From the NCBI GenBank assembly GCA_963842525.1, contig CAWJGT010000019.1:470191-534190 (forward strand): DNA of 64,000 nt. Direction: 5' to 3'. The notes beneath the pieces are model-generated. The model was not told the DNA's origin, did no database searches, and was given only the letters and a program-made list of their open reading frames with translations. Below, piece after piece: positions 23,001 to 43,359 of the stretch (position 1 is its first letter; each line of letters starts with the position of its first letter). A program made the position numbers and the translations under genes. The DNA is from an uncultured Holophagales bacterium (lineage in GTDB: Bacteria; Acidobacteriota; Thermoanaerobaculia; Multivoradales; UBA5704).

Positions 23001-23479
23001 GCGCCCGCCTGCCCGAGCACATGGTGCCGGCGGTCGTTGTGCTGCTGGATGCCCTGCCGCTCACCCCGAACGGCAAGATCGACCGCCGGGCCCTGCCCGA
23101 GCCGCCCGCCGCCCAGGCCGCCGGCGCCGGCGGGCACGTCCCGCCGCGGACCGCGGTCGAGGAGGAGCTGGCCCGCATCTGGGCCGGGCTGCTGGCGCTG
23201 CCGTTCGACCGCGTGGGGGTGAACGACAACTTCTTCGACCTGGGCGGTCATTCGCTGCTGGCCACCCAGTGCGTCGCCCAGGTGCGGGAGCGCCTGGGTG
23301 CGGAGATCCAGCTCCAGAGCCTGTTCGGCAATGCGACTCTTGGTGAAATCGCCGACGCCATCGTCGAGGCCGAGCTGCGGCAGGTGGACCAGGACTCGCT
23401 GCGCGAGATACTCGCCGACTTCCAGGGGCTGGACGAGGAGGCGCTGCAGGCCCTGCTGGCGGGAGAGGAGCCGCGTTGA
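17060..23479 (+). CDS. Hybrid PKS-NRPS KS-AT-ACP-C-A-T
   Basis: KS triad QTGCSS / EGHGSGT / NIGHCD. AT GYSLGE and HAFHS (malonyl type). [20 protein letters not shown] code about DAMFFGHVVK (Leu-like). No KR/DH/ER. Confidence 0.95.
21998..22053. repeat. Half copy of the CCCTCTCCC..GGGAGAGGG palindromic element, in-frame
   Basis: ccccctctccc...gggagtgcggatgggagaggggggccaggggggtga just before LAYVIYTSG. Confidence 0.85.
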
Positions 23480-26400
23480 GCGAACGGCCGGGACCCGCAG
23501 TCGCCATCGAGGAGGCGCTCGCCGGGCTCTCGCGGGAGGAGAAGGCCCTGCTCTTCGAACGGCTGCGCAAGCGGGAGAAGCCCGGCGGGCGGGACTCCGC
23601 GATCCCGCGCCGCCGGCCGGGCGTGGGGCCCCTTCCTCTCTCCTTCGCGCAGGAGCGCCTCTGGTTCCTCGACCGGCTGCAGCCCGGCGACCTCTACAAC
23701 GTTCCCTACGCGCTCTCGATCCGCGGCAACCTGGAGCCGGCCGCGCTGGCCGCCGCTCTCGGCGGGGTCGTGCGGCGCCACGAGGTGCTGCGCACCACCT
23801 TCGGCGAGCGCGACGGCCAGCCGGTGCAGGTCATTGCCCCGCCCGGCCCCTGGCGGCTGCCGCTCGTCGACCTCGCCGGGCTCCCCGCGGCGCAGCTCGA
23901 CGAGGAGCTGGCACGGCTCGCGGCCTGGGAGGCGCGGCGGCCGTTCGACCTCGCGGCCGGCCCCCTGCTGCGCACCACTCTTGTGCGTACCGCCGCGGCC
24001 GAGCACACGCTGCTGCTCGTCCTGCACCACATCGTCGCCGACGCCTGGTCCATGACGGTGCTGGTGCACGAGACCGCGGAGCTGTACCGCGCCGCGTCAA
24101 TGGGGCAGGCCCCGATGCTTCCCGAGCTGCCGATCCAGTACGCGGACTTCGCGCTCTGGCAGCGCTCCTGGCTGCAGGGAGAGGTGCTGGAGCGCCAGTT
24201 GGCGTATTGGCGGAGCCGCCTCGCGGACGCCCCGGCGGCGCTCGACCTGCCCTTCGACCGGCCGCGGCCGGCCGTGCCGAGCTTCCGCGGCGCCGCGCGG
24301 ACGATCGCCCTGCCGCCCGCCCTTGCGGCCGGCCTGCGCCAGCTCGCGCGGGACGAGCGCCTGACCCTGTTCATGGCCCTGCTCGCGCCGCTCCAGGGCC
24401 TGCTCGCGCGGCTCGCTGGCGTCGACGACGTCGTGGTCGGCACGACCGTGACCGGCCGCGACCGCCGCGAGCTCCAGGGGCTGATCGGCTTCTTCATCAA
24501 CACGCTGGCCCTGCGCACCGACCTCTCCGGAGACCCGGACGGCCGCGAGCTGCTGGGCCGGGCGCGCCAGACCACCCTGGACGCGTTCAGCCATCAGGAC
24601 CTGCCGTTCGAGAAGGTGGTCGGCGAGCTGAGCCTGCCGCGCGATCCCTACCGGCCGCCGCTGCTCCGGGTGCTTCTGCAGCTCCTGGCCCATCCCGAGG
24701 GCGGCCTGGACATCCCCGGGCTGACGCTCGCGCCCCACGGCCTCGACCGCGAGACGGTCAAGCTCGACCTGATCCTGAACGTCCACGACTACCCGGGCGG
24801 CGTGCTGACGGAGTGGCTCTACGACACCGACCTGTTCGACGCCTCCACGGTGGCACGCCTGGCCGGCAGCTTCCTCACCCTGCTCGAAGGCTGGGTCGAG
24901 GACCCCGCGCGACGGCTCTCCGACCTGCCGCTGCTGACCGCGGCACAACGCCACCAGCTTCTCGTGGAATGGAACCCGGGTCCGGCAGGGGAGCCCGCCT
25001 GGGGTTGCCGGGGCTGCCTGCACCGGCTCTTCGCCCACCAGGCGGAGCGGACGCCGGATGCGCCGGCCGTCTCGATGGGAGGTGGACGGAGGACGTACCG
25101 GGAGCTGGACGAGTCCTCCAACCGCCTCGCCCGGCACCTGCTCGCCGCCGGGATGCGGCCGGGCGATCGTGTCGCCCTTTTCCTCGACCGCTCGCTGGAC
25201 ATGGTGGAGGCGATCATGGCCGTCCTCAAGGCGGGCGCCGCCTACCTGCCGCTCGATCCGGCCTACCCTCGCGAGCGGATCGCCTTCGCCCTGGAGGACA
25301 GCGGAGCCGCGCTCGTCCTCACCGTCGCGGCGCGCTCCCCGGAGTTGCCGGAGATCCCAGAAAACACCGCGCGGGTGCTCGTCCTCGACCGCGAGCGCGA
25401 CGCCATCGCCCACCGCAGCAGCGGGCCGGTCGAGGCCGCGGCCGATCCGGAGCTGCCGGCCTACGTCATCTACACCTCCGGCTCGACCGGCCGCCCCAAG
25501 GGGGTGGTGGTGCCGCACGGCAACGTCACCCGGCTCTTCACCGCCACCGCGCCCTGGTTCGGCTTCGGCCCGCAGGACGTTTGGACCCTCTTCCACTCCT
25601 ATGCCTTCGACTTCTCGGTCTGGGAGATCTGGGGGGCGCTCCTCCATGGCGGCCGGCTGGTCGTGGTGCCGTACTGGGAGAGCCGCGCGCCCGAGGCCTT
25701 CTACAAGCTGCTGCGCGATGAGCGGGTGACGGTGCTGAATCAAACGCCATCGGCTTTCCGGCAGCTTTTGTGGGCGGAGGAGGCGGTGGGACCTCACCCC
25801 CTGTCCCCCTCTCCCATCTCCCACCCACCCTATCCCCGGGAGAGGGGGGACGTTGCTCAGGCGATTCCAGCGAGCCCGGGCACGGGTGCCCTGGATGCGT
25901 CCCCCCTCTCCCGGCGGGGGGTGGAAGGGAGATGGGAGAAGGGGCTAGGGGGTGAGGACACGCTCTCTCTGCGCTTCGTGATCTTCGGCGGCGAGGCGCT
26001 GGAGCCGGCGATGCTCCGGCCCTGGTTCGACCGCCATGGCGACGAACGGCCACGGTTGGTCAATATGTACGGCATCACCGAGACCACGGTCCACGTCACG
26101 TACCGGCCGCTCGGGCGGGAGGACAGGAGGAGCGTCGTGGGCCGGCCGATCCCCGACCTGACGCTCCACGTGCTCGACCGCAGCCTCCAGCCGCAGCCGC
26201 TCGGGGTGGCAGGGGAGATCTGCGTCGGCGGGGAAGGGCTCGCCCACGGCTACCTGGGGCGGCCGGCGCTGGCCGCCGAGCGCTTCGTCCCCGATCCCTT
26301 CGGGGTTCTCCGGGGCGAAGCGGGCGCGCGGCTCTACCGTTCGGGCGACCTGGCGCGGCGACTGGTGGACGGCGACCTGGAATACCTGGGCCGCGTCGAC

Positions 26401-29400
26401 CACCAGGTCAAGATCCGCGGCTTCCGCATCGAGCTGGGGGAGATCGAGGCGGCGCTGACGCGCCATCCGGCCGTGGGCGAGGCCGTGGTCCTGGCGCGCC
26501 GGGATGCCGGCCACGGCGAGGATCGCCTGGTGGCCTACGTGACCGCCGGGCCGCAGCCCTCTCCCGCCCTGCCGGAGCTGCGGGCCTTCCTCGCCGGGAG
26601 CCTCCCCGACTACATGCTCCCCGCGGCCCTGGTGGTCCTCGACCGCCTGCCGCTGACGGCCAACGGCAAGGTCGACCGCCGTGCCCTGCCCGCTCCGGAG
26701 GCCGTGTCCACGGCCAGTCGCGAGCAGGTGCCGCCGCGCGACGCGTTGGGGCACGCCCTGGCCGGTCTCGTCCGCGAGGTCCTGGCGATCCCGGCCGAGC
26801 AGGAGACCGGCGTTTTCGACGACTTCTTCGAGCTGGGCGGGACATCGATCACAGGTGCCATCTTCATCAACCGGCTCCAGGAGACGTTGGAGGAGATCGT
26901 CCAGGTGGTGGTGATCTTCGACTATCCCACGGTCGATGCCCTGGCCGGCTATGTCCGGCACGAGCACCCGAAGGCCGTGGCGCGGCTCTGGCCTGCGGCT
27001 CTGGAGCCGGTCGACGAGACGAAGCCGGCCCGGTTCCGTGGCCTCGTCCGCCCCGTCGCCCATATCGCCGAGGATTGGTCCGCCATCCAGCCGGCGGGCT
27101 GGCGCGAGGGCGAGCCCATCCCCCTGTCGTCCGCCCAGGAGAGGCTGTGGTTCCTCGACCGGCTCGCCCCCGGCTCGCCGGTCTACAACATCTCTACCCC
27201 CCTGCGGCTGAGCGGGCCCTTGCGAGTCCCGGCCGTGGCCGCGAGCTTGCGCGAGATCCTGCGCCGTCACATGGCATTGCGCACGCGCTTCGTGGCGCTC
27301 GGCGGCGTGCCGCACCAGGTCGTGGACCCCGTTCCGGAAGACGTCCTCCCGGTGGTCGACCTCGCGGGGCTGCCGGAACCGCTCCGCGAGGGCGAGGCCC
27401 AGCGTCTCGCGGCGGCCGACGCGGTCCGGCCGTTCGATCTGGCGCGCGGGCCGATGCTACGCACCCTCCTGCTGCGGCTCGGCCCAGAGGAACACGTCTC
27501 CCTTGTGGCAATGCACCACATCGCCTCGGACGGCTGGTCCATGGGCGTGTTGATCCGCGAGCTGGCGGTTCTCTATGGCGCGTTGGCGCAGGGCCGGCCT
27601 TCGTCCCTGCCGGAGCCGGCCATCCAGTACGCCGACTTCGCCGTCTGGCAGCGGCGGTGGCTCCAGGGCGAACGGCTGGAGCGCGAGATCGCCTACTGGC
27701 GGGAGGCGCTGGCCGGCGCGCCGGTGCTCGACCTGCCGGTCGACCGGCCGCGACCGCCGGTGCAGACCTTCCGCGGCGCCCAGTTGGGATTCCACGTGCC
27801 GGCCGAGGTGGCCGCCGCGTTCGCCGCGGCCGGCCGGAGGGAGCGGGCGAGCCTGTTCATGACGCTGCTGGCGGGCTTCGCCGTTCTCCTCTCCCGGTAC
27901 GCGGGCCAGGACGACGTCTCCGTGGGCTCGCCGGTCGCCAACCGCACGCGGAGCGAGATCGAGGGGCTGATCGGGTTCTTCGTCAACACCCTGGTGCTGC
28001 GCACGGACCTCTCCGGCGATCCCTCGTTCGGCGAGCTCCTGGGCCGGGTGCAGCGTACGGCGGTGGGGGCCTTCGCCCACCAGGAGGTGCCCTTCGAGAA
28101 GATCGTGGAGGAGCTGCAACCGAAGCGCGACCTGTCGCGCTCGCCGCTCTTCCAGGTGATGCTCACGCTCCAGAACGCCTCGTCCGAGAAGCTGGAGCTG
28201 CCGGACCTGACCCTGAGCCCTCTCGAGGGCGGCGGGACCACGGTGGCGAAGTTCGACCTGACGCTCGCCCTCTTCGAGGCACCGGACGGCCTGGCCGGGA
28301 GCTTCGAATACAACACCGACCTCTTCGACGCCGCGACGATCGGCCGGCTCGCACGGTGCTTCCAAACGCTGCTGGCCGCGGCCGCGGTGTCGCCGGAGCC
28401 GGTTTCGGAGCTGCCGCTGCTGAGCGATGCGGAACGGCGCCAGCTCCTGGAGCGGGGCAGGGCGGAATCGTCCGGAGGCATCGTCTGCCTCCACGAACGC
28501 TTTGCGCAGCAGGCGCGGGAGGCGCCGGCGGCCCCGGCGATCACCTTCGCGGGTGCGACCCTGAGCTATGCCGAGCTGAATCGGCGGGCGAACCGGCTGG
28601 CTCATGCGCTACGTGCGCGCGGGATCGGCCCCGGCGACCTCGTGGGCCTCTCCCTGGAGCGCTCGCTCGACCTGGTGGTCGCGATCCTGGGCGTGCTCAA
28701 GTCCGGAGCTGCCTATGTGCCGATCGATCCGGACTCCCCGGCCGAAAGGACCGCCTGGATCCTGGCCGACAGCCGGGTCGCGCTGCTGCTGACCGACAGC
28801 ACGTTGGCCGAGGCGGATAAGACTGCTGATCGGGACGACGACCAGGTGCCGTGGTCCGCTCCGGAGGATCCGGCCTACGTCATCTACACCTCGGGCTCGA
28901 CCGGGAAGCCCAAGGGCGTCGTGGTCACCCACGCCAACGTGGCGCGCCTGTTCGCATCGACCGAGGGCTGGTTCGGCTTTGGTCCTGAGGATGTCTGGAC
29001 GCTGTTCCACTCCACGGCCTTCGACTTCTCGGTCTGGGAGATCTGGGGCGCTCTGCTCTACGGCGGGCGCCTGGTGGTGGTGCCGTACTGGGTCAGCCGT
29101 TCGCCGCAGGACTTCTACCGCCTGCTGGTGACGGAGCGGGTGACGGTGCTCAACCAGACGCCGTCGGCCTTCCGCCAGCTCCTCTGGGCGGAGGAGTCGG
29201 TGCTCGACGGCGGCCCCCCCGACCTGGCTTTGCGCTGCGTCATCTTCGGCGGCGAGGCCCTGGAGCTGTCGAGCCTGGCCCCCTGGTTCGCCCGCCATGG
29301 AGACCACCGTCCCGAGCTGGTCAACATGTACGGCATCACCGAGACCACGGTCCACGTCACCTGGCGTCCGCTGCGGCAGGAAGACACGGCACGAGGAAGC

Positions 29401-32400
29401 GTCGTGGGCCGGCCGATCCCGGACCTGGCGCTGCACGTCCTGGATCCCAAGCTGGAGCCCCAGCCGCTCGGGGTGCCAGGGGAGATCTGCGTCGGCGGCG
29501 GAGGGCTCGCCCTGGGCTACCTGAACCGGCCGGACCTGACGGCGGAGCGCTTCGTCCCCGATCCCTTCGGGTCTCCTGGAACGCGCCTGTACCGCTCGGG
29601 CGACCTGGCGCGGCGGCTGACGGATGATTTGGAATACCTGGGGCGCATCGACCAGCAGGTCAAGATCCGCGGCTTCCGCATCGAGCTGGGCGAGATCGAG
29701 GCGGCGCTGTCGAGCCATCCCGCTGTACGCGAGGCGGTCGTGGTCGCCCGTGAAGGGCAGCTCGTCGCCTACGTGGTGGCCGCTCCCGATCAGGAGGAGC
29801 CCACGCTCGAAGATCTGCGGTCGGCGCTTACAGCCCATCTGCCGGACTACATGCTGCCCTCGGCGTTCGTGCTGCTGCCGGCCCTGCCGCTGACCGCCCA
29901 TGGCAAGGTGGACCGGCGGGCCCTGCCGGAGCCGGAGTGGAGACCGGCGCAACGGCAGTCGGTCGCGCCGCGCACGGACCTCGAAAGGCTGGTGGCCCAC
30001 CTGTTCGCGGAGACGCTGGGGCTCGACCGGGTGGGAGTGCACGAGGACTTCTTCGAGCTCGGCGGCAGCTCGATCACCGGTGCCATCCTGATCAACCGGC
30101 TCCAGGAGGCGACCGGCGAGGCCATTCCGGTGGTGGCGATCTTCGAGACGCCGACCGTCGCCGGCCTGGCCGAGCGCCTGTCTCCCTCCGCGGTGCGCCT
30201 TGGCGATCAGGCGCCGCCGCTCGTCCCGGTGCCGCGTGAGCGCGACCTTCCGCTCTCCTTCGCCCAGCAGCGGCTCTGGTTCCTCGACCGGATGGAACCG
30301 GGGAGCCCGGCCTACAACCTGCCCAACGCCGTGCGCATCCGCGGCCGGCTCGACGTGCCGGCGCTCGGCCGCACGCTCCAGGAGTTGGTGCGTCGCCACG
30401 AGACGCTACGCACCTCCTTCGCGCTGCGTAATCGCCAGCCGGTGCAGGTCATTGCGCCGGATGTCCTGGCGGGGGTTTTCGCTCTGCCGGTCGTCGACCT
30501 GGCCGCGCTCCCGGAGGAGGCCCGCGAAGCCGCACTGCCCGCCGAAGCCGCGGCCGAGGCGCTCCGGCCGTTCGACCTGAGCCGGGCACCGCTGCTGCGC
30601 GCCACGCTGCTGCGGCTGGGGGATGACGACCACGCCCTGCTCCTCACCATGCACCACATCGTCTCGGACGCCTGGTCGATGGGGGTCCTCGTCACCGAGG
30701 TGACGCGGCTCTACGGCGCCTTCGTCCGTGGCGAGCCCTCGCCGCTCCCCGCGCTGCCGGTCCAGTACGCGGATTTCGCGGTCTGGCAGCGCCAGTGGCT
30801 CCAGGGCGACGTGCTGGCGGCCCAGCTTGCGTACTGGCGGCAGCAGCTCGCCGGCGCGCCGGTGCTCCAGCTCCCCACTGACCGGCCGCGTCCCGCGGTG
30901 CAGACCTGGCGCGGCGCCGATTTCTCCTTCCTGTTGCCGGCTCCCCTCATCCAGTCGCTGACCGCTCTCGGTCATCGGCACGGGCGCCACCGGGCCACGC
31001 TGTTCATGACGCTCCTGGCGGGCGCCCAGCTCCTGCTCTCCCGGTACAGCGGCCAGGACGACGTCACCGTGGGCTCGACGATCGCCAACCGTACGCGGCC
31101 CGAGCTGGAGGGCCTGATCGGGTTCTTCGTCAATACGCTTGCCCTGCGGCTGGATTTGACGGGGGACCCGTCGTTCGCGGACCTCCTGGACCGGGCGCGG
31201 GAGGTGACCGTCGGCGCCTATGCCCACCAGGACCTGCCGTTCGAGCAGCTCGTGGCCGAGATCCAGCCGGAACGGGACCTCGGACGCTCGCCGCTCTTCC
31301 AGGTCCTCGTCCAGCTCCAGAACACCCCGGCCGGCACCGCGGAGCCGGCGCCCGGCCTGGTCCTGGAGCCTGTCCAGAAGCCGGGCCAGACCGCGAAGTT
31401 CGACCTGGTCCTGAACCTGGCCGAGACCGCCGAGGGCCTCTGGGGCCAGTGGAAGTACAACCGCGACCTGTTCGAGGAGGCGACGATCGCCCGCCTGTCG
31501 AGCGATCTGGAGACCCTGCTCGCCGCGGTGGCGGCGGAGCCGGAGCGCCGGATCGCGGAGCTGCCGCTGCTGCATGGCGAGGAACGGCGCCAGCTCCTGC
31601 CGCAGGCACCGGCCGCCCCGGTGGCCGCCTTCACGGGTGCGACCCTGGGCTACGCCGAGCTGGTCGAGCCGCGCAACGAGGTCGAGCGGTTCGTGGCCGG
31701 CCTCTTCGCCGAGGCCCTGGGGCTCGACCGGGTGGGAGTCCACGAGGACTTCTTCGCGCTCGGTGGCAATTCGATCACCGGCGCCATCCTGATCAACCAG
31801 CTCCAGGAGACCCTCGGAGAGATCGTCCAGGTGGTGGTGATCTTCGACGCCCCGACAGTCGCCGAGCTGGCCGACTACCTGGCGCGCGAGCATCCGCAGG
31901 CGGCGGAACGGCTCTGGGGCCTGGCCGCCGTGGAGCAACGAGGAGCCGGGCGGGTCGGCGATGCGCAGATCGCGGCGCTCCGGGCGCTGTTGGGTGGCGG
32001 CGCCCCTCTCCCGCTCGGGGTGGGGGATGGTGGACGCGCGGGGGAGGGGTCGGGGGAGGGGGCCCTCTTCGTCCTGGCGCCGCCGCGCTCGGGCACCACA
32101 CTCCTCCGCGTCATGCTCGGCGGCCATCCGGCTCTCTTCGCGCCGCCGGAGCTGGAGCTCCTGTCCTTCAACACCCTGGCCGAGCGCCGGGCCGCCTTCC
32201 CGGGCCGCGACAGCTTCTGGCTGGAGGGGCTCGTCCGGGCCGTTATGGAGATCCGCGGCTGCGGCGCCGAGGAGGCCGCGGCCCTGATGGAGGACCTGGA
32301 ACGGGAGGGGCTGACGACCGCCGAGCTCTACGGCCGGCTCCAGTCCTGGCTCGGCGGGCGGATGCTGGTGGACAAGACGCCGTCCTACGCCCTGGATCCC

Positions 32401-35400
32401 GCGGTCCTGCGACGGGCCGAGGAGGTCTTCGACGGGCCGCGCTACATCCATCTGATGCGCCACCCGCTCGGCATGATCCACTCGTTCGAGGAGGCCAAGC
32501 TCGACCAGATCTTCTTCCGCTACGAGCACTCGTTCTCCCGCCGCGAGCTGGCCGAGCTGATCTGGACGGTGAGCCACCAGAACATCGTCGATCTCCTCCA
32601 GGACGTGCCTGCCGAGCGGCAGCACTGGGTCCACTTCGAGGAGCTGGTGCGCGAGCCGGAGCGCGTGCTGCGCGGGATCTGCGCCTTCCTGGGGATCGAC
32701 TACCACCCCGCCATGGCGCAGCCCTACGAGGAAGGCTCCGCGCGGATGACCGACGGCCTGCACGCCGCGTCCCGGATGCTCGGCGACGTCAAGTTTCACC
32801 AGCACCAGGGCGTCGACGCCCGCGCCGCCGAGCGCTGGCGGGAGGAGCTCGGCGAGGAGGCCCTGGGCGAGCCGTCGCGGCAGATGGCGGCGCGGCTCGG
32901 GTATTCCCTGGAGACAGGCGGGAAGGAGCTGGGGCAGATCGCGTCCTCCGGCTGGCACGAGGGCGCTCCGCTCTCCTTCGCCCAGGAGCGGCTCTGGTTC
33001 CTCAGCCGGCTGGACCCCGATTCCGCGACCTACAACATCGCCGCCGCCCTGCGCCTCCGCGGCCGGCTCGACACGCCGGCCCTGGAGGGGGCTCTGCGGC
33101 AGATCCTGCGGCGCCATGCCGTGCTGCGGACGACCTTCGACGCCGTGGACGGCCGCGCGCGCCAGAACGTCGGACCCGTGGAGGGGTTGGACCTGCCGCT
33201 CGTCGATCTCTCCGCCCTGCCGGCCGCCCTGCGCGAGCCCGAGCTGCGGCGCCTGATCGACGAGGCGGCCCAGCTCTCCTTCGATCTGGAGCGCGACCTC
33301 CTGCTCCGTCCGCTCCTCCTGCGCCTGGGCCAGGACGAGCACGGCGCCGTCCTGGTGATGCACCACATCGCCGCGGACGGCTGGTCCATGGGTGTGCTGA
33401 TCCGCGAGCTGGCCGCTCTCTACAGGGCTTTCACCCAGGGCCAGCCGTCGCCGCTGCCGGACCTGCCGATCCAGTATGCGGACTTCGCGCGCTGGCAGCG
33501 CGAGTGGTTGAAGGATGAGCGGCTCGACCGCGAGCTCGCCTTCTGGCGCGACGCGCTCGCCGAGGCGCCCGTTCTCCAGCTCCCCACCGACCGGCCGCGG
33601 CCCCCGGTGCAGACCTTCCGTGGAGGCAGGCGTTTCCTCCTGATGCCGGCACGGATCGGCGAGCCTCTGACCGCCGTGGGCCAAGGGGAGGGCGCGAGCC
33701 AGTTCATGACTCTGCTGGCGGGCTTCGCCGCCCTCCTCGCCCGCTACGCCGGGCAGGATGACGTCTCGATCGGCACGCCCATCGCCGGCCGCACCCGGGC
33801 TGAAATTGAAGGGCTGATCGGGTTCTTCGTCAACACGTTGGTCCTGCGCACGGACCTGTCCGGTGATCCGCCGTTCCGCACCCTCCTCAGACGGGTACGG
33901 AGCGCCGCGGTCGCGGCCTTCGCCCACCAGGACCTCCCGTTCGAGAAGGTGGTCGAGGAGCTGCAGCCGGAGCGGGACCTGTCGCGCACGCCCCTCTTCC
34001 AGGTGATGTTCACCCTGCAGAACGCCCATTCCGAGACCCTGAAGCTGCCAGGGCTGACCCTGGAGCCCCTCGGCGCCGACACCGGGGCGGCCAAGTTCGA
34101 CCTGACGCTGGCGATGGCCCAGGGTCCGGCGGGCCTCTTCGCAACGTTCGACTACAACCTCGACCTGTTCGACGGCCCGACGATCGACCGCATGGCCGAG
34201 CACCTCGCCATGCTCCTGGAGGGAGTGGTCGCGGAGCCCGACCGCGCAGTCTCCGAGCTGCCGCTTCTGACCGCGGGCGAACAACACCAGCTCCTCGCCG
34301 AATGGCCGGGCACCGCTCCCGCGGGCTGTTCCGTCCCTGTCGATCAGCTCTTCCGCGAGCAGGCCGCGCGGACCCCGGGCGCCGTGGCGCTTCTGTTCGG
34401 CGACGAGCGGATCACCTATGCCGAGCTGGACGAAAGGTCGGACCGGCTGGCCCGGGAGCTGGCGGCGGCCGGCGTGGGCCCCGAGGTCCGGGTCGCCGTC
34501 GCCCTGGAGCGCTCGCCCGCTCTGATTGAGGCGTTTTTCGGCGTGCTCAAGGCGGGCGGGGTGTACGTGCCGATCGATCCGTCCTATCCGGCGGAGCGGA
34601 TCGAGTTGATGCTGGAGGATTCCGGCGCGGCGGTGGTGCTGCGGGACCCTCACCCCCCTAGCCCCCCTCTCCCATCCGCACTCCCGATCCCCCTGGAGAG
34701 GGGGGAACAAAGCAGAAGCAGTCTTGAGCTAGAGAAGCTTTTCTCCCCTCTCCCGGGGGAAGGGAGTGCGGATGGGAGAGGGGCCGGGGGTGAGGGCCCC
34801 GCCTACGTCATCTACACCTCCGGTTCCACCGGCCGACCCAAGGGCGTCGTCGCCCTCCACCGCGGCCTCGCGACCTTCAGCCTCGCTATGGCCGACGCAC
34901 TGGGCCTCGGTCCCGGCGACCGCTTCCTGCAGTTCGCGTCGCCTTCCTTTGACGCCTCGGCCGTGCAGATCTTCCCAACGCTGCTGAGCGGGGCCACGCT
35001 CGTCCTTCACCCCGATCCGACCGCGCTGTCTCCGGCCGAGCTGTTGGTCTTCTGCGCCGACCAGGGGGTGACCGTGCTCGACCTGCCGGGGGCTCTCTGG
35101 CGCCAGACGGTGCAGGAGATGGCGTCCGGCGCCGCGCCACATCCACCCGTCCGGGCCTGGTTGACGGGCGGCGAGAGCCTGTCCCTCGAAGCCCTGCGGC
35201 AGTGGGCCGGGACGGTGGACGGTGAGAGCCTGTTCCTCAGCTCCTACGGCCCTACCGAGGCCACGATCACCACGACCGTCTTCACCCTGCCCGCGCGGGA
35301 GGTCGCCTCCCTTCCTGCCTTCGGCGCTCCCGTGGGCCGGCCGCTCGGCGGTGCCGAGGTCTACCTGCTCGACGCGGCCCTGCAGCCGGTTCCGGCGGGC

Positions 35401-38400
35401 GTGGCGGGCGGCCTGTACATCGGGGGCTCCGGGCTCGCCCGCGGCTATCTCGACCGGCCCGAGCTGACCGCGGCGGCGTTCGTTCCCCACCCCCTGGCCG
35501 GTGGAGAGCCCGGAGCACGCCTCTACCGTACCGGCGACCTCGCGCGGTGGCGGCCGGACGGCTCGCTGGAGTTCCTCGGCCGGGCCGACCAGCAGGTCAA
35601 GATTCGCGGCTTCCGGGTGGAGCCGGGCGAGATCGAGGCGATCCTGGCGCGCCACCCCGCAGTCGCGGACGTCGCCGTCGGCGTGCACGAGGACCGGGGT
35701 GATCGCAACGATCAGCGCCTGGTCGCCTGGGTGGTGCCCGCGGAAGCCGGGGATGCCCTCGTGCCGAAGCTGCGCGCGTTCCTCCGTGAGCGGCTGCCCG
35801 AGCACATGGTCCCCTCGGACTTCGTGCCCCTCGCCGCGATGCCGCTCACCCCGGGTGGCAAGGTGGACCGCCGCGCCCTGCCGGCGCCGGACCGCTCGCG
35901 GCCGGAGGACGGCGCCGGCTTCGTTGCGCCGCGCGGTGCAGTGGAGGAGACCCTCGCCGCCGTCTGGTCCCGCCTGCTCGGGGTCGAGCGGGTGGGGGCG
36001 GACGACGACTTCTTCGAGCTGGGCGGCCATTCGCTCCTGGCCACCCAGCTCGTCTCGCGCCTCCGCGAGGTCTTCGGCGTCGAGCTCCCCCTGCGCCAGG
36101 TCTTCGAGGCGTCTCGCCTCGCCCGGCTGGCCGCGGTCGTCGAGGACGCCCGCCGCGACCAGCGGGGCATGGCGGTCCCGCCGCTCCAGCCTCTTCCCCG
36201 GACCGAGGACGAGCCCCTGCCCCTCTCCTTCGCCCAGGAGCGCCTCTGGTTCCTCGATCAGCTCCAACCGGGGCGGCCGACCTACAACATGCCCACCGCC
36301 GTGCGGCTCGGCGGACCGCTGGACGCGATCGCCCTCGCCGCTGCTCTCGGCGAGGTCCGGCGGCGGCACGAGGCGCTGCGTACCCGCTTCCCGGTGCAGA
36401 GCGGTGCGCCGGCCCAGGTTATAGCTGAGCCCGACCCGTTCTCCCTGCCCCGGGTCGACCTCTCCCGGCTGGAGGGACCGGTCCGCGAGGCCGAGGCCAC
36501 CCGCCTGGCCGTGGCAGAGTCCAGCCGGCCGTTCGACCTCGCCGCCGGACCGCTCCTGCGCGCCACCCTGGTGCGGCTGGCCGAGCGCGAGCACGTGCTC
36601 CTGATCACCCTGCACCACATCGTCTCGGACGGCTGGTCCATGGGTATCCTCATCGAGGAGCTGGGCCGGTCCTACCACGCCTTCGCAGCCGGTACCGGGC
36701 CTGACCTGCCCGCGCTGCCCGTCCAGTACGCCGACCATGCCCGCTGGCAACGCGGCTGGCTGCGCGGCGAGGCGCTCGCGGTCCAGCTCGGCTACTGGCG
36801 GGACAAGCTCGGCGGCGAGCCGGTATCCCTGGAGCTGCCTCTCGACCGGACCCGTCCGTCGGGTGACGTCTTCCGCGGCGCCCGGCAGACCGTCCATGTC
36901 CCTCTGGCCGCCCTGAAAGCCCTGGAGGCCCTCGGCCGGCGCGAGGAGGCCACCCCTTTCATGGCCCTGGTGGCCGCCTTCGAGGCGCTGCTCCACCGCG
37001 TCACCGGACAGACCGACATCTCGGTGGGCACGCCGATCGCCGGCCGCACCCGGAGCGAGACCGAAGGGCTGATCGGCCTGTTCCTCAACACCCTCGTCTT
37101 GCGGGACGATTTGTCGAGAGATCCGACATTCCGCGAGCTGATCGGCCGTGTCCGGCGCACGGCCCTGGACGCCTACTCGCACCAGGACCTGCCGTTCGAG
37201 AAGATCGTCGAGGAGCTGCAACCGCAGCGCAGCTTCGGCCAGACGCCGTTCTTCCAGGCCATGTTCGTCCTGCAGAACACGCCGGCCGGCGCACTGGAGG
37301 CCGGGGAGCTGACCCTGGCGCCGGTCCCGGCCTATAACGAGACAGCGCGGTTCGATCTCACGATGTCCGTCTCCCAGACCCCCGCCGGCCTCTACGGCTG
37401 GCTGGAGCACAAGCCCGACCTTCTCCACGCCACCACGGTCCAGCGCTGGATCGAGGGCTTCCGGCGCATTGTCGAAGCCGTCGCCGCCGATCCCGACCTG
37501 CGGCTCTCCGAGCTGCCCCTCCTGTCGGCCGCCGAACGCCATCAGGTCGTGAGCGAGTGGAACGATAGCGAAGCCCCAAGTCGGGACGTCTGTCTGCACG
37601 ACCTGTTCGCGGAGCAGGTCGCGCGTACGCCTGGGGCCGTGGCCGTGATGGGCCTCGACGTGGATCTCACCTATGCGGAGCTGGCAGCCCGGGCGGAGGA
37701 CCTGGCCGGCCGTCTGCGTGCCCAGGGCATCAGGCCCGGTGACCGGGTCGCGATCCTGATGCAGCCCTCGCCGGACCGTGTCGCGGCGGTGCTCGCCGTG
37801 CTTCAGGCCGGCGCGGCCTATGTCCCCCTGGACCCGGCCTATCCGCAGGAGCGGCTGGACTTCATGGTCCAGGATGCGGGTGCGTCGGTCGTGCTGACGG
37901 ACCCTCACCCCCGGCCCCTCTCCCATCCGCACTCCCTCCCTCCGGGAGAGGGGAGGATTGCAGTGAGAAGGCTTCTTTCCTCCTCTCCCGGGGGATCGGG
38001 AGTGCGGATGGGAGAGGGGTCGGGGGTGAGGGCCTACGTCATCTACACCTCAGGCTCCACCGGCCAGCCCAAGGGCGTCATGATCGAGCACCGCCAGGCG
38101 GTCAACACGATCCTCGACATCAACCGCCGCTTCGGAGTGGGGGAGCGGGACCGGGTCTTCGCCATCTCGGCCCTCTCCTTCGACCTGTCGGTCTGGGACC
38201 TCTTCGGCACCCTGGCCGGCGGCGGCACGATCGTGCTGCCGCCGCCGCAGACCGAGGGGCCGGACCCGGCTGCCTGGGTGGAGCGGCTGGCGGCCTGCGG
38301 TGTCACGATCTGGAATTCGGCTCCACCTCTGCTGGAGATGCTGGTCGAGTCCGGAGCGCGGCTGCCGGCGACGTTGCGCCTGGCGATGCTCTCGGGCGAC

Positions 38401-39486
38401 TGGATCCCGGTCTCGCTGCCGGGCCGCGTCCGCCGGCAGGTCCCAGAATGTCGTGTCATCAGCCTCGGCGGCGCCACCGAGGGCTCCATCTGGTCGATCC
38501 TCCATCCGGTCCAGGAGGAGGACGCGCGGCGACGGAGCATCCCCTACGGCCGGCCGATGGAGAACCAGCGCTTCCATGTCTTCGACGGTCGCGGCAGGCC
38601 GGTGCCCATCGGCGTGGTCGGCGAGCTGTGCATCGGGGGCGCCGGGGTGGCCGGCGGCTATCTCGGCCGGCGGGAGCTGACCGCCGAGCGCTTCGCCCCC
38701 GATCCGTTCGGAGAGCCGGGAACGCGCCTCTACCGCACGGGCGACCTCGGGCGCTTCCTGCCGGACGGTACGATCGAATTCCTCGGCCGCCTCGACCACC
38801 AGGTCAAGATCCGCGGCTTCCGTGTAGAGCTGGGGGAGATCGAGACCGTGCTGGCGCAGCACCCCACGGTCCGCGAGGCGGTGGCCCTGGTGCGTGCCGA
38901 GGGTGCCTCGCCGGCCGCGGGCGGTGACCGCCGTCTGGTCGGGTATGTAGTGCCCCAGCAGGAGGCGGTTGTTGATCCTGCCGAGCTGCGCGCCTGGCTC
39001 GCGGTTCGGCTGCCCGAGTACATGGTGCCGCCGCAGATCGTCGTCCTCGACCGCCTGCCGGTGACCCCCAACGGCAAGCTCGACCGCGCCGCCCTGCCGG
39101 CTCCCGAGGCGCTGGCCCGCGAGGTGGTGCCGCCGCGCGATGCCGTCGAGGAGACGCTGGCCGGGATCTGGCGCCGCCTCCTCGGGGTGGAGGTGGTGAG
39201 CATCGACGACAACTTCTTCGAGCTGGGCGGCCACTCGCTCCTGGCGACTCGCGTGCTGGCCGCGCTGCGCGAGGAGCTGGGTGTCGAGCTGCCCGTACGC
39301 GAGGTTTTCGATCGACCGACCATCGCGGGCTTGGCCCTGGCCGTGGCCGAGCGCCGGGTCGAAGCCGTGCCCGAGGAGGATCTCGCCCACATGCTCGACG
39401 ACCTCGACGGCCTGTCGGACGAAGAGATCGAGCGCCTGCTCGCCGAGCCGGAGGAGGCCACCATAGCCGGCGGAGAGCCTCCATGA
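23476..39486 (+). CDS. 5336-aa NRPS: C-A(Thr)-T-C-A(Thr)-T-C-T-sulfotransferase-C-A(polar/basic?)-T-C-A(Cys)-T
   Basis: Five C domains and four A domains. Codes DFWNIGMVHK twice (Thr), about DAVDLGSITK, and DLWNMSLIWK with SGDWIP/SLGGATE (Cys). PAPS-binding APPRSGTTLLR at ~32075. Confidence 0.95.
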   Translation: MSERPGPAVAIEEALAGLSREEKALLFERLRKREKPGGRDSAIPRRRPGVGPLPLSFAQERLWFLDRLQPGDLYNVPYALSIRGNLEPAALAAALGGVVRRHEVLRTTFGERDGQPVQVIAPPGPWRLPLVDLAGLPAAQLDEELARLAAWEARRPFDLAAGPLLRTTLVRTAAAEHTLLLVLHHIVADAWSMTVLVHETAELYRAASMGQAPMLPELPIQYADFALWQRSWLQGEVLERQLAYWRSRLADAPAALDLPFDRPRPAVPSFRGAARTIALPPALAAGLRQLARDERLTLFMALLAPLQGLLARLAGVDDVVVGTTVTGRDRRELQGLIGFFINTLALRTDLSGDPDGRELLGRARQTTLDAFSHQDLPFEKVVGELSLPRDPYRPPLLRVLLQLLAHPEGGLDIPGLTLAPHGLDRETVKLDLILNVHDYPGGVLTEWLYDTDLFDASTVARLAGSFLTLLEGWVEDPARRLSDLPLLTAAQRHQLLVEWNPGPAGEPAWGCRGCLHRLFAHQAERTPDAPAVSMGGGRRTYRELDESSNRLARHLLAAGMRPGDRVALFLDRSLDMVEAIMAVLKAGAAYLPLDPAYPRERIAFALEDSGAALVLTVAARSPELPEIPENTARVLVLDRERDAIAHRSSGPVEAAADPELPAYVIYTSGSTGRPKGVVVPHGNVTRLFTATAPWFGFGPQDVWTLFHSYAFDFSVWEIWGALLHGGRLVVVPYWESRAPEAFYKLLRDERVTVLNQTPSAFRQLLWAEEAVGPHPLSPSPISHPPYPRERGDVAQAIPASPGTGALDASPLSRRGVEGRWEKGLGGEDTLSLRFVIFGGEALEPAMLRPWFDRHGDERPRLVNMYGITETTVHVTYRPLGREDRRSVVGRPIPDLTLHVLDRSLQPQPLGVAGEICVGGEGLAHGYLGRPALAAERFVPDPFGVLRGEAGARLYRSGDLARRLVDGDLEYLGRVDHQVKIRGFRIELGEIEAALTRHPAVGEAVVLARRDAGHGEDRLVAYVTAGPQPSPALPELRAFLAGSLPDYMLPAALVVLDRLPLTANGKVDRRALPAPEAVSTASREQVPPRDALGHALAGLVREVLAIPAEQETGVFDDFFELGGTSITGAIFINRLQETLEEIVQVVVIFDYPTVDALAGYVRHEHPKAVARLWPAALEPVDETKPARFRGLVRPVAHIAEDWSAIQPAGWREGEPIPLSSAQERLWFLDRLAPGSPVYNISTPLRLSGPLRVPAVAASLREILRRHMALRTRFVALGGVPHQVVDPVPEDVLPVVDLAGLPEPLREGEAQRLAAADAVRPFDLARGPMLRTLLLRLGPEEHVSLVAMHHIASDGWSMGVLIRELAVLYGALAQGRPSSLPEPAIQYADFAVWQRRWLQGERLEREIAYWREALAGAPVLDLPVDRPRPPVQTFRGAQLGFHVPAEVAAAFAAAGRRERASLFMTLLAGFAVLLSRYAGQDDVSVGSPVANRTRSEIEGLIGFFVNTLVLRTDLSGDPSFGELLGRVQRTAVGAFAHQEVPFEKIVEELQPKRDLSRSPLFQVMLTLQNASSEKLELPDLTLSPLEGGGTTVAKFDLTLALFEAPDGLAGSFEYNTDLFDAATIGRLARCFQTLLAAAAVSPEPVSELPLLSDAERRQLLERGRAESSGGIVCLHERFAQQAREAPAAPAITFAGATLSYAELNRRANRLAHALRARGIGPGDLVGLSLERSLDLVVAILGVLKSGAAYVPIDPDSPAERTAWILADSRVALLLTDSTLAEADKTADRDDDQVPWSAPEDPAYVIYTSGSTGKPKGVVVTHANVARLFASTEGWFGFGPEDVWTLFHSTAFDFSVWEIWGALLYGGRLVVVPYWVSRSPQDFYRLLVTERVTVLNQTPSAFRQLLWAEESVLDGGPPDLALRCVIFGGEALELSSLAPWFARHGDHRPELVNMYGITETTVHVTWRPLRQEDTARGSVVGRPIPDLALHVLDPKLEPQPLGVPGEICVGGGGLALGYLNRPDLTAERFVPDPFGSPGTRLYRSGDLARRLTDDLEYLGRIDQQVKIRGFRIELGEIEAALSSHPAVREAVVVAREGQLVAYVVAAPDQEEPTLEDLRSALTAHLPDYMLPSAFVLLPALPLTAHGKVDRRALPEPEWRPAQRQSVAPRTDLERLVAHLFAETLGLDRVGVHEDFFELGGSSITGAILINRLQEATGEAIPVVAIFETPTVAGLAERLSPSAVRLGDQAPPLVPVPRERDLPLSFAQQRLWFLDRMEPGSPAYNLPNAVRIRGRLDVPALGRTLQELVRRHETLRTSFALRNRQPVQVIAPDVLAGVFALPVVDLAALPEEAREAALPAEAAAEALRPFDLSRAPLLRATLLRLGDDDHALLLTMHHIVSDAWSMGVLVTEVTRLYGAFVRGEPSPLPALPVQYADFAVWQRQWLQGDVLAAQLAYWRQQLAGAPVLQLPTDRPRPAVQTWRGADFSFLLPAPLIQSLTALGHRHGRHRATLFMTLLAGAQLLLSRYSGQDDVTVGSTIANRTRPELEGLIGFFVNTLALRLDLTGDPSFADLLDRAREVTVGAYAHQDLPFEQLVAEIQPERDLGRSPLFQVLVQLQNTPAGTAEPAPGLVLEPVQKPGQTAKFDLVLNLAETAEGLWGQWKYNRDLFEEATIARLSSDLETLLAAVAAEPERRIAELPLLHGEERRQLLPQAPAAPVAAFTGATLGYAELVEPRNEVERFVAGLFAEALGLDRVGVHEDFFALGGNSITGAILINQLQETLGEIVQVVVIFDAPTVAELADYLAREHPQAAERLWGLAAVEQRGAGRVGDAQIAALRALLGGGAPLPLGVGDGGRAGEGSGEGALFVLAPPRSGTTLLRVMLGGHPALFAPPELELLSFNTLAERRAAFPGRDSFWLEGLVRAVMEIRGCGAEEAAALMEDLEREGLTTAELYGRLQSWLGGRMLVDKTPSYALDPAVLRRAEEVFDGPRYIHLMRHPLGMIHSFEEAKLDQIFFRYEHSFSRRELAELIWTVSHQNIVDLLQDVPAERQHWVHFEELVREPERVLRGICAFLGIDYHPAMAQPYEEGSARMTDGLHAASRMLGDVKFHQHQGVDARAAERWREELGEEALGEPSRQMAARLGYSLETGGKELGQIASSGWHEGAPLSFAQERLWFLSRLDPDSATYNIAAALRLRGRLDTPALEGALRQILRRHAVLRTTFDAVDGRARQNVGPVEGLDLPLVDLSALPAALREPELRRLIDEAAQLSFDLERDLLLRPLLLRLGQDEHGAVLVMHHIAADGWSMGVLIRELAALYRAFTQGQPSPLPDLPIQYADFARWQREWLKDERLDRELAFWRDALAEAPVLQLPTDRPRPPVQTFRGGRRFLLMPARIGEPLTAVGQGEGASQFMTLLAGFAALLARYAGQDDVSIGTPIAGRTRAEIEGLIGFFVNTLVLRTDLSGDPPFRTLLRRVRSAAVAAFAHQDLPFEKVVEELQPERDLSRTPLFQVMFTLQNAHSETLKLPGLTLEPLGADTGAAKFDLTLAMAQGPAGLFATFDYNLDLFDGPTIDRMAEHLAMLLEGVVAEPDRAVSELPLLTAGEQHQLLAEWPGTAPAGCSVPVDQLFREQAARTPGAVALLFGDERITYAELDERSDRLARELAAAGVGPEVRVAVALERSPALIEAFFGVLKAGGVYVPIDPSYPAERIELMLEDSGAAVVLRDPHPPSPPLPSALPIPLERGEQSRSSLELEKLFSPLPGEGSADGRGAGGEGPAYVIYTSGSTGRPKGVVALHRGLATFSLAMADALGLGPGDRFLQFASPSFDASAVQIFPTLLSGATLVLHPDPTALSPAELLVFCADQGVTVLDLPGALWRQTVQEMASGAAPHPPVRAWLTGGESLSLEALRQWAGTVDGESLFLSSYGPTEATITTTVFTLPAREVASLPAFGAPVGRPLGGAEVYLLDAALQPVPAGVAGGLYIGGSGLARGYLDRPELTAAAFVPHPLAGGEPGARLYRTGDLARWRPDGSLEFLGRADQQVKIRGFRVEPGEIEAILARHPAVADVAVGVHEDRGDRNDQRLVAWVVPAEAGDALVPKLRAFLRERLPEHMVPSDFVPLAAMPLTPGGKVDRRALPAPDRSRPEDGAGFVAPRGAVEETLAAVWSRLLGVERVGADDDFFELGGHSLLATQLVSRLREVFGVELPLRQVFEASRLARLAAVVEDARRDQRGMAVPPLQPLPRTEDEPLPLSFAQERLWFLDQLQPGRPTYNMPTAVRLGGPLDAIALAAALGEVRRRHEALRTRFPVQSGAPAQVIAEPDPFSLPRVDLSRLEGPVREAEATRLAVAESSRPFDLAAGPLLRATLVRLAEREHVLLITLHHIVSDGWSMGILIEELGRSYHAFAAGTGPDLPALPVQYADHARWQRGWLRGEALAVQLGYWRDKLGGEPVSLELPLDRTRPSGDVFRGARQTVHVPLAALKALEALGRREEATPFMALVAAFEALLHRVTGQTDISVGTPIAGRTRSETEGLIGLFLNTLVLRDDLSRDPTFRELIGRVRRTALDAYSHQDLPFEKIVEELQPQRSFGQTPFFQAMFVLQNTPAGALEAGELTLAPVPAYNETARFDLTMSVSQTPAGLYGWLEHKPDLLHATTVQRWIEGFRRIVEAVAADPDLRLSELPLLSAAERHQVVSEWNDSEAPSRDVCLHDLFAEQVARTPGAVAVMGLDVDLTYAELAARAEDLAGRLRAQGIRPGDRVAILMQPSPDRVAAVLAVLQAGAAYVPLDPAYPQERLDFMVQDAGASVVLTDPHPRPLSHPHSLPPGEGRIAVRRLLSSSPGGSGVRMGEGSGVRAYVIYTSGSTGQPKGVMIEHRQAVNTILDINRRFGVGERDRVFAISALSFDLSVWDLFGTLAGGGTIVLPPPQTEGPDPAAWVERLAACGVTIWNSAPPLLEMLVESGARLPATLRLAMLSGDWIPVSLPGRVRRQVPECRVISLGGATEGSIWSILHPVQEEDARRRSIPYGRPMENQRFHVFDGRGRPVPIGVVGELCIGGAGVAGGYLGRRELTAERFAPDPFGEPGTRLYRTGDLGRFLPDGTIEFLGRLDHQVKIRGFRVELGEIETVLAQHPTVREAVALVRAEGASPAAGGDRRLVGYVVPQQEAVVDPAELRAWLAVRLPEYMVPPQIVVLDRLPVTPNGKLDRAALPAPEALAREVVPPRDAVEETLAGIWRRLLGVEVVSIDDNFFELGGHSLLATRVLAALREELGVELPVREVFDRPTIAGLALAVAERRVEAVPEEDLAHMLDDLDGLSDEEIERLLAEPEEATIAGGEPP
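25792..25957. repeat. Full palindromic element inserted in-frame in the Thr A domain
   Basis: cctcacccc...ggggtgagg termini. Absent from the paralogous A domain at ~29190-29230. Confidence 0.9.
32003..32062. repeat. Half palindromic element in the T-sulfotransferase linker
   Basis: Nearly identical to 41484-41544 (gcccctctcccgctcgggg...gcgcgggggaggggtcgggggagggggcc). Confidence 0.85.
32062..32910 (+). other. Embedded PAPS-dependent sulfotransferase domain
   Basis: LFVLAPPRSGTTLLRVMLGGHP (5'-PSB loop), LVDKTPSY, YIHLMRHP..S (3'-PB), HFEELVREPE. Confidence 0.9.
34647..34796. repeat. Full palindromic element in-frame in the pre-A3 loop
   Basis: ccctcacccc..ccctctcccatccgcactccc ... gggagtgcggatgggagaggggccgggggtgaggg. 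Confidence 0.92.
37902..38032. repeat. Full palindromic element in-frame in the pre-A3 loop
   Basis: ccctcacccccggcccctctcccatccgcactccc ... gggagtgcggatgggagaggggtcgggggtgaggg. Confidence 0.92.
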
Positions 39487-43175: not shown

Positions 43176-43329
43176 GTCGGGGAGCGGCTCTCCGGGGCCC
43201 AGACCGGACCGCTCCCCCTCAACGCGTACATCGATTTTCAAAGAGCCCATGACGGCGACCCTGTTGCCTTCGCCATCGATGCGTCGATGCTATGGTGACT
43301 CTACTGCATCTGTCAAGGCATCTTCTGCA

Positions 43330-43356: not shown

Positions 43357-43359
43357 GGG

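Follow-up and report, generated by a model that had tools for sequence, protein, structure and literature searches.

Module 3 of a large NRPS gene from an uncultured Holophagales bacterium has lost its adenylation (A) domain in frame, and the scar of this loss is still visible between its condensation (C) domain and its carrier (T) domain. The gene lies in the window, the 64,000 nt stretch of DNA that was analysed, and has the domain order C1-A1-T1-C2-A2-T2-C3-(A remnant)-T3-ST-C4-A4-T4-C5-A5-T5 (Table 1). Module 3 thus consists of C3, 19 aa from the N-terminus of an A domain, T3 and a sulfotransferase (ST), and the next domain is again a C domain. We see about an even chance that this module is a C-A(Ser/Thr)-T-ST-C module that lost its own A domain and still functions within a nonlinear NRPS, with Thr that is loaded by A2 and sulfonated on the carrier.

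Table 1. Features of the NRPS gene in and around module 3 (positions in the window)
Feature	Position	Strand	Basis	Remarks
NRPS gene, 5336 aa	23476..39486	+	ORF list, translation, Pfam, tblastn domain map	
A2, adenylation domain of module 2	28501..29925	+		Closest relative of the remnant; proposed loader of T3
T2, carrier domain	29968..30177	+		Core GGSSITG, typical of T domains preceding ST
C3, condensation domain	30241..31575	+	Pfam, alignments, tree	HHIVSD motif intact
Remnant of A-domain N-terminus including A1 motif, 19 codons	31606..31662	+	Alignments	
Junction of the large in-frame deletion	31662..31663	+	DNA alignment	
T3, carrier domain	31666..31875	+	Pfam PP-binding, tblastn	Core GGNSITG
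Copy of a dispersed GC-rich repeat, 75 nt	31989..32063	+		In frame within the T3-ST linker
ST domain, CurM/OLS type	32041..32955	+	Pfam Sulfotransfer_3; PDB 4gbm, 4gox	
C4, condensation domain	32956..34305	+	tblastn map, tree	Follows ST

In module 3, Pfam detected Condensation, PP-binding and Sulfotransfer_3 (93.4 bits against a cut-off of 27), but nothing of the AMP-binding type between C3 and T3, so that the canonical C-A-T order is absent. Behind C3 the protein reads APAAPVAAFTGATLGYAEL (residues 2711-2729), directly followed by VEPRNEVERF (nt 31663-31692), both as described in an earlier note on this DNA. The counterpart in module 2 that the note had named, APAAPAITFAGATLSYAEL, matches as claimed but is found at nt 28522-28578, one base off the 28521-78 given there. 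The two peptides have 14 of 19 residues in common. Local alignment of the C3-T3 linker (29 aa) with the N-terminus of A2 gave a score of 73, while 5000 shuffled linkers scored 22.1 +/- 4.4 and at most 45, none of them reaching 73. This strongly supports homology of the remnant to the start of A2. Among 29 listed A-domain N-termini, taken from the window and six paralogous loci, A2 was the best match with 14 identities, and the next best had 11 and 10.

A global alignment of modules 2 and 3 revealed two in-frame gaps in module 3. The large gap comprises 461 aa (module 2 residues 1702-2162) and begins after the A1 motif and runs up to the A-T linker; the second gap comprises 22 aa and lies immediately upstream of the remnant. 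Together with the Pfam result, this alignment bears out the loss of an A domain with a visible scar. The proposed removal of about 450 aa was right in size and frame, but the remnant is flanked by two deletions instead of a single one. No shared homology at the 31662/31663 breakpoint was evident in the DNA alignment.

We compared module 3 with 92 other ST domains, 86 of them in 74 related loci and 6 in the same genome. A full A domain precedes T-ST in 82 of the 92, including all six paralogs in the own genome and 76 domains in the related loci, where a PKS module (2), nothing detected (3), or a cut by the locus edge or lack of a T match (5) accounts for the rest. A C domain directly before T-ST was found in none of the 92. 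The two closest paralogs in the own genome, L087 and L088, are C-A(Thr)-T-ST-C modules with 71-73% (C3), 72-73% (A2), 68-72% (T3) and 78-81% (ST) identity to the window, and the gap in the window coincides exactly with the position of their A domains. C3 was the best match to Pfam Condensation over the scanned stretch (E 6.8e-137), its HHIVSD motif is also present in its paralog, and in the tree it falls together with the C domains at the start of the L087 and L088 modules (local support 100%). T3 retains the phosphopantetheine serine, and its core is the commonest one among T domains before ST (32 of 91). The nearest tree rows to C4 are C domains following ST, and C4 falls within no marked clade. 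Module 3 has the T core GG[NST]SI[TS]G of the ST type, retains the columns conserved in ST domains and continues with a C domain behind the ST. The C-A(Ser/Thr)-T-ST-C module type is common in Acidobacteriota, and no published description of this acidobacterial class was found in the literature searched. By these comparisons the A-less form of module 3 is derived.

Module 3 is one of seven A-less C-T modules in this genome, mostly located after a full module. It has the arrangement known from nonlinear NRPSs, in that a complete module precedes it and its C and T domains adjoin within a single open frame. The gap between C3 and T3 is 91 nt, and the gaps in the other six A-less modules are 34-106 nt. 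The pattern A-T-C-T-C was seen in five of nine returned loci of other genomes, and a further C-T-C stands in an other-genome locus that is cut at its 5' end. Most of the six other modules, and of those in relatives, show no recognisable A remnant, which suggests that A-less modules are long-lived. A second A-less module of the same assembly line, 15 kb upstream, carries an A8-motif remnant, and in both remnant-bearing modules the carrier is most similar to that of the preceding module; T2 and T3 are 72% identical (dS 0.37) and reciprocal best matches within the assembly line. The readable remnants and the close carriers fit a route in which module duplication makes an A domain redundant and the redundant A domain is then deleted.

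The claim that a complete sulfotransferase of the CurM family follows T3 was confirmed: the domain aligns with residues 32-310 of the 323-residue CurM ST chain 4gbm_A (E 9.3e-68) and with 4gox_A (E 7e-61). Its PPRSGTT aligns with SPRSGST and conforms to PRSG[ST]T, which we take to be the PAPS-binding loop. PPELE aligns with PPELH of CurM/OLS and keeps the acidic residue of PPEL, presumably the catalytic base of the CurM ST. PPEL is followed by Glu instead of His in the window ST and in 87 of 90 NRPS-embedded ST domains. The repeat copy in the T3-ST linker is 97% identical to a copy at G000:C23:289574-289648, which indicates a recent insertion, and short matches to it occur across the genome. 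The repeat is not enriched in open frames (124 of 228 loci versus 321 of 500 random places), a test that hardly discriminates in a genome of 72% GC.

We propose the following working of module 3. Its own Thr-type A domain would have been deleted in frame, with C3, T3 and ST left intact. A2, immediately upstream in the same polypeptide, would load Thr on both T2 and T3, C3 would join the chain to Thr-S-T3, the CurM-type ST would sulfonate the beta-hydroxyl of this Thr with PAPS as donor, and C4 would hand the peptide onward. A2 is the most likely loader of T3, on the circumstantial grounds that it is Thr-type and that T3 is the closest relative of T2; A1 and A2, both upstream of module 3, carry the identical 10-residue code DFWNIGMVHK, which we take to be a Thr code. 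O-sulfonation of the tethered Thr can reasonably be inferred, because the ST domains of relatives stand almost only behind A domains of Ser or Thr type (53 of the 65 that precede T-ST). Such codes occur in only 4 of 72 A domains before T without ST, two of which are A1 and A2 of the window. In module 3 no Ser/Thr-type A domain directly precedes T-ST, since it is deleted. Module 3 represents a natural minimal C-T-ST construct for asking about loading by a foreign A domain and about the fate of the sulfate.

It is possible, though somewhat unlikely, that module 3 is instead a decaying or skipped relic of a recent deletion, with a T3 that cannot be loaded, so that the chain skips the module or the assembly line comes to a halt. 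The domains would then look intact since little time has passed and since the downstream modules need an open frame. The A-less ST form is unique among the ST domains examined, and a DNA search of five same-genus genomes returned no ortholog of the assembly line and nothing that spans the junction, the best matches being at paralog level (73-76% DNA identity). As no relative has an A-less ST module, there is no sign that selection kept module 3. The remnant has drifted: compared to A2 its dS is 0.20 and its dN/dS 0.85, near-neutral but calculated from 19 codons only, and it has Gly at the A1-motif position that is Thr/Ser in 141 of 144 intact A domains (those with a recognisable A1 motif). The recent repeat insertion in the T3-ST linker is also in line with decay. 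Furthermore, no TE of the assembly line was found within the window and two genes of the line are separated by a transposase-bearing low-GC island of 16 kb, so the whole line could be impaired. On the other hand, both gaps are in frame, and the six other A-less C-T modules of the genome, like those of relatives, mostly lack a recognisable remnant, in line with a long life of such modules. The ST domain keeps 110 of 111 family-conserved columns (those kept at >=90% in 90 ST domains) and is by this measure without decay; its dN/dS versus L087 is 0.22, equal to that of intact paralogs (0.21 for L087 versus L088), although after a recent deletion intact domains and a low dN/dS that is averaged over the divergence say little on present function.

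T1 and T2 also raise the view, which we consider improbable, that T1, T2 and T3 are all served by the one remaining ST and the two Thr-type A domains, the redundant A domain of module 3 and an ST behind T1 having been shed. All three are of the carrier type that normally precedes ST: the cores TSITG of T1 and SSITG of T2 are among those that dominate the 91 T domains before ST, while NSITG, SSITG or TSITG is found in only 4 of 89 T domains before C, T1 and T2 included. C2 is sister to the C domains following ST in L087 and L088 (local support 95), the T1-C2 linker has 165 nt compared to 66-84 nt for two other T-C linkers of the gene, and at its two ends it aligns with the beginning of the T3-ST linker and the final part of the ST-C4 linker. 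Only four Ser/Thr-type A domains lack an ST of their own, and A1 and A2 are among them, which is also in agreement with sharing. However, the T core type could track Ser/Thr modules rather than ST, the contrast is biased since the loci were collected via their ST domains, and the T2-C3 linker is without trace of a lost ST. To our knowledge there is no precedent for an in-line ST that acts on the carriers of other modules.

An assembly error, in which a collapsed or chimeric join mimics the loss of the A domain, is very unlikely, since the sides of the junction are not homologous (A1 motif versus A-T linker), both gaps preserve the reading frame of a 16-kb ORF, the same assembly line contains another A-less module whose remnant is different, and the contigs are large (up to 2.0 Mb), even if the genome is a metagenome-type assembly of 34 contigs. 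Collapse of near-identical repeats at the junction is unlikely: apart from the repeat at 31989-32063, which lies well clear of it, no other copy of any part of 30241-33400 in the genome exceeds 81% identity, so there is nothing near-identical to collapse. None of the listed contig pieces from public runs (30000-33200, 88% likeness) bridges 31662/31663 with at least 31 letters on each side, but no more than 0.14 of the sampled words is present in any of the 14 matched soil or rhizosphere runs, which yielded only short contigs of relatives. A search of metagenome contigs with a degenerate 30-nt pattern for the junction peptide returned one 1500-nt contig, a chance match, because BLAST shows no similarity between it and the window and every one of its frames contains stops.

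Coming back to a working module 3, the fate of the sulfate may differ from simple decoration. In CurM (curacin A) the sulfate acts as leaving group when the chain is released by decarboxylation. By analogy, T-ST could be a self-contained station, fed by a neighbouring A domain, in which carrier-bound Thr or Ser is beta-O-sulfonated and then, as the sulfate leaves, converted by elimination to dehydrobutyrine or dehydroalanine; this is speculative and we hold it to be improbable, but if true, dehydroamino acids of nonribosomal peptides would arise here by a route not described so far. In that case the two scars in one line would also illustrate how a linear NRPS turns nonlinear, by shedding redundant A (and ST) domains once a module has been duplicated. 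Decarboxylative release itself gains no support from the TEs of relatives: 11 related loci with the same ST family end in A-T-ST-TE, and ordinary NRPS/PKS TEs (4zxh, 7crn, Pks13) head the PDB sequence search with these thioesterases, no molecule named CurM being among the 41 matches. We also considered the C domains after ST as a subfamily of their own, a possible hint to elimination. On a FastTree of 160 C domains the post-ST label required 30 changes versus a shuffled mean of 52.8; the domains are clustered, far from forming one clade. A post-T motif, searched as [RHKQ]EHP...W, was found in 4 of 91 T-ST and 1 of 89 T-C cases, the expression being too narrow.

Among known systems, the ACP-ST-TE parts of CurM and of OLS (olefin synthase) contain the same ST family, directly behind a carrier domain as in the window. 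The CurM substrate is presumably a carrier-bound beta-hydroxyacyl thioester, as Thr-S-T likewise would be. In contrast to CurM and OLS, where a TE follows, the window ST sits between a PCP and C4 in an elongation module of an NRPS, and the ACP-ST-TE off-loading architecture is therefore absent from the window. Sulfonation linked to a carrier-bound NRPS intermediate is known from the ST domain of OciA for cyanopeptolin in Planktothrix and from SulN for sulfazecin, which acts on a T-bound peptide; OciA acts on glyceric acid and SulN on an amine, neither of which is a Thr/Ser side chain. The acidobacterial C-A(Ser/Thr)-T-ST-C modules of the same genome (L087, L088) have 64-81% identity to C3, T3, ST and C4 of the window and share the T core type as well as the columns conserved in ST, but in the window the A domain is missing. 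A-less modules are described for nonlinear NRPSs, among them thalassospiramide Ttc/Ttm, and there, as in the window, an A-less C-T stands downstream of a complete module with the upstream A domain as presumed loader (bioRxiv 10.1101/560987). Compared to these systems, the window module differs by the readable remnant of its lost A domain and by the presence of an ST. While the origin of A-less modules is usually invisible, in this assembly line remnants are readable in two of them.

The largest ORF in a run of NRPS/PKS genes on the + strand of the window has the domain order C1-A1-T1-C2-A2-T2-C3-T3-ST-C4-A4-T4-C5-A5-T5 (C, condensation; A, adenylation; T, carrier; ST, sulfotransferase), as mapped by Pfam and by tblastn with the gene's own domains. 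G+C is about 72% over the NRPS genes of the window, the source genome comprises 9.95 Mb in 34 contigs, and a related-locus search led mostly to Acidobacteriota MAGs labelled Thermoanaerobaculia or Holophagales. Neither Pfam nor the tblastn map has an AMP-binding match between C3 and T3. This linker holds the 19-residue peptide APAAPVAAFTGATLGYAEL, directly followed by the T-linker peptide VEPRNEVERF, which starts at 31663.

Positions of the features discussed (window numbering unless a contig is named)
Feature	Position	Strand	Remark
Largest NRPS ORF	23476-39486	+	5336 aa
Repeat copy in A1	25792-25957		
T1 and T1-C2 linker	26734-27112		
C2	27112-28449	+	
C3	30241-31575	+	Pfam, tblastn map
A remnant in module 3	31606-31662		19 residues
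T3	31666-31875	+	Pfam, tblastn map
75-nt repeat form, T3-ST linker	31989-32063		97% identical to a copy on contig C23 of the same genome
Repeat copy in A4	34664-34799		
A5	37606-39087	+	code DLWNMSLIWK
Repeat copy in A5	37899-38032		
rve/Mu-type transposase, low-GC island	50902-52320		
AAA_22 ATPase, low-GC island	52149-53123		
Repeat copy in A domain of gene 59504-62776	about 61517-61661		
Second A-less C-T module, same assembly line	G000:C19:454299-455906	same	~15 kb upstream of window start

The peptide is identical in 14 of 19 residues to its counterpart in module 2 (28522-28578). Local alignment of the whole 29-aa C3-T3 linker with the N-terminus of A2, the Thr-type A domain of module 2, gave a score of 73, while shuffled linkers scored 22.1 ± 4.4 (maximum 45) and none of 5000 reached 73. 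When modules 2 and 3 are aligned globally, an in-frame gap of 461 aa begins after the A1 motif and reaches the A-T linker, and a second in-frame gap of 22 aa lies just upstream of the remnant. The earlier note had read the peptide as a relic of an A1 region left by in-frame loss of the A domain, and this is borne out; its figure of about 450 missing residues was right in size, but the loss is not a single gap. Of 177 A-domain N-termini examined, 33 had no regex match for the A1 motif; 141 of the other 144 have Thr or Ser at a motif position where the remnant has Gly.

To define the usual form of ST modules, the domains of the window served as tblastn queries for a domain map of 74 related loci and of six loci in the genome itself. 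T-ST was preceded by a full A domain for 76 of 86 ST domains in relatives and for all six paralogs of the genome itself; the other relatives had a PKS module (2/86), nothing detectable (3/86, cyanobacterial loci), or a locus edge cut or no T match (5/86). A C domain directly before T-ST was found in none of the 86 and none of the six, and a C domain followed the ST in 70/86 and 6/6, respectively. Ten-residue specificity codes, whose amino-acid assignments we presume throughout, were derived by alignment to A2 for 159 of 257 A matches; the remaining 98 were fragmentary or split, ran off a locus end or contained stops. Codes of Ser or Thr type occurred in 53 of 65 A domains directly before T-ST and in 4 of 72 before a T without following ST, a contrast biased to ST neighbourhoods since the loci were collected via their ST domains. 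Among the 53 codes, 33 are of DVWH, DIWH or DLWH type and 20 of DFWN or DFWS type; two of the four are A1 and A2 of the window, both DFWNIGMVHK. Six of the 12 remaining A domains before T-ST carry DA[SA]TVAAVCK, which we take to be a Tyr-type code. Despite the sampling bias, the association of the ST with hydroxy-amino-acid modules is clear, and module 3 of the window is a module of this type minus its A domain. Its closest full versions, the paralogous loci L087 and L088, lie ~215-245 kb upstream on the same contig and have the order C (71-73% identical to C3), A (Thr-type, 72-73% to A2), T (68-72% to T3), ST (78-81%), C. C3 grouped with the first C domain of both loci (local support 100%).

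The remaining domains of module 3 look intact, which speaks for a working module. C3 has the HHIVSD motif, as does its paralog, and T3 has GGNSITG, the core found most often in T domains before an ST (32/91), while T domains before C have GGHSLLA in 56 of 89 cases. The claim that a complete sulfotransferase follows T3 agrees with the matches to the STs of CurM (4gbm_A, E 9.3e-68) and of olefin synthase, OLS (4gox_A, E 7e-61), which cover nearly the whole length; the next-best matches were tyrosylprotein sulfotransferases (~1e-6). In an alignment of 90 NRPS-embedded ST domains (related loci, own paralogs and window), the window ST keeps 110 of 111 columns conserved at ≥90%, the sole deviating one being in the linker before the core. 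Compared with L087, dN/dS was 0.22 for the ST (L087-L088 pair, 0.21) and 0.31 for C3 (paralog pair, 0.36), values that average over the whole divergence and are therefore compatible with function having been lost very recently. For the remnant the value was 0.85, which is noisy, as it comes from only 19 codons.

Modules without an A domain recur in this lineage. When 40 relatives were searched at the protein level, matches running contiguously from C-end to T turned up in nine loci of other genomes, five with the order A-T-C-T-C and a sixth, 5′-cut, with C-T-C; the C-T linkers of these loci contain no recognisable A remnant. The source genome itself has seven A-less C-T junctions among about 383 C, 390 A, 316 T and 9 ST matches in tblastn. 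Among individual loci, A-less C-T modules were noted in the Holophagales MAG loci L009 and L011 and in same-family genomes (L094-L096, L098, L099, L101); some form tandems (C-T-C-T), their carriers have an 11-residue motif, and no A remnant is readable.

The second A-less module of the same line, one of the seven in the genome, also bears a scar, a leftover piece of a deleted A domain: 13 residues of its linker align with a region of A2 that we take to be the A8 motif (score 65; shuffles 26.4 ± 3.9, maximum 51, 0 of 3000 reaching 65). The T domain of each scarred module and that of the module before it are mutual best matches in the line, with 72% and 66% identity versus medians of 43-54%. For remnant-A2 and T3-T2, dS was 0.20 and 0.37, lower than for C3 and ST versus L087 (about 0.6). 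These relationships fit a history in which adjacent modules were duplicated, or underwent gene conversion, and the A domain that had become redundant was then lost. Alternatively, a T-C-remnant piece may have been inserted into a canonical C2-A2-T-ST module; the resulting domain order would be no different, and T3 would have had A2 as its partner from the start. That the missing A domain is a collapse in the assembly is unlikely, since the two junction flanks show no evident homology to each other in the DNA alignment, no other copy of any part of 30241-33400 in the genome exceeds 81% identity except the 75-nt repeat, which lies away from the junction, both gaps are in frame, and the assembly has large contigs (up to 2.0 Mb). 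Public sequencing runs contained at most 0.14 of the sampled words and thus are without this strain; none of the contig pieces listed from them bridged the junction. The sole match to the junction pattern in metagenome contigs was a chance hit, and five same-genus genomes contained paralogs only.

The 75-nt element belongs to a GC-rich palindromic dispersed repeat whose arms include CCCCTCTCCC...GGGAGAGGGG and which is read through in frame within NRPS domains. A genome-wide blastn search with one copy as query matched at least 228 loci, without enrichment in open frames (124/228 loci versus 321/500 random places). Similar palindromic elements, likewise in frame, are known from Rickettsia. A low-GC island (~43200-59500; 57-67% versus 72%) between two NRPS genes, which also encodes an HTH and a TPR protein, probably represents a transposon that entered the cluster. 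A5 also has GGATE and SGDW motifs and, with its code, resembles what we take to be Cys-activating A domains of cyclisation modules; in the C domain of its module, however, the motif is the usual HHIVSDGWS. The 64-kb window revealed no TE domain, and a KS is cut by the contig end.

T1 (core GGTSITG) and T2 are carriers of the ST type in modules that have no ST. C2 is sister to the C domains after ST in L087 and L088 (local support 95), and the T1-C2 linker is long (165 nt), with ends that align with the T3-ST and ST-C4 linkers. This points to an ST domain that was probably lost after T1. The joint reading, in which the single remaining ST also serves several carriers, appears rather improbable.

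In the working that we consider most probable, A2 would load Thr onto both T2 and T3, C3 would perform condensation, the ST would sulfonate the beta-hydroxyl of Thr-S-T3, and C4 would hand the chain on. As precedent, loading by an upstream A domain is presumed for nonlinear NRPSs in bioRxiv 10.1101/560987. Retention of the sulfate in the product is weakly favoured by three observations. Six T-ST modules have presumed Tyr-type codes, and a phenol sulfate should be incapable of elimination; the TE of L026, the one ST-TE terminus tested, ranked among PDB sequences as ordinary NRPS-type and not CurM-like; and the C domains after ST form no separate clade. Elimination to dehydrobutyrine would be possible, considering the kinship to CurM and the acidity of the thioester alpha-proton.

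The CurM-type ST and the A-less module of nonlinear NRPSs are already known. New are an ST module that lacks its A domain, a line in which two deletion scars can still be read, and the relation of such scarred modules to the carrier next to them. An in-line ST behind Ser/Thr modules was not described in the literature searched, which mostly excluded subscription journals, so that this is no proof that the class is unpublished. A-T-ST-TE occurs at 11 NRPS termini (L019, L020, L023, L026, L032, L035, L042, L052, L055, L056, L062), with three Thr-type, four Ser-type and two DLKNFGTDVK-like codes and two without code. These termini are formal NRPS counterparts of the ACP-ST-TE of CurM in curacin A synthesis. 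The Glu of the PPEL motif is presumably the catalytic base of the CurM ST; the residue that follows this motif is Glu in 87 of the 90 NRPS-embedded ST domains, whereas it is His in CurM and OLS.
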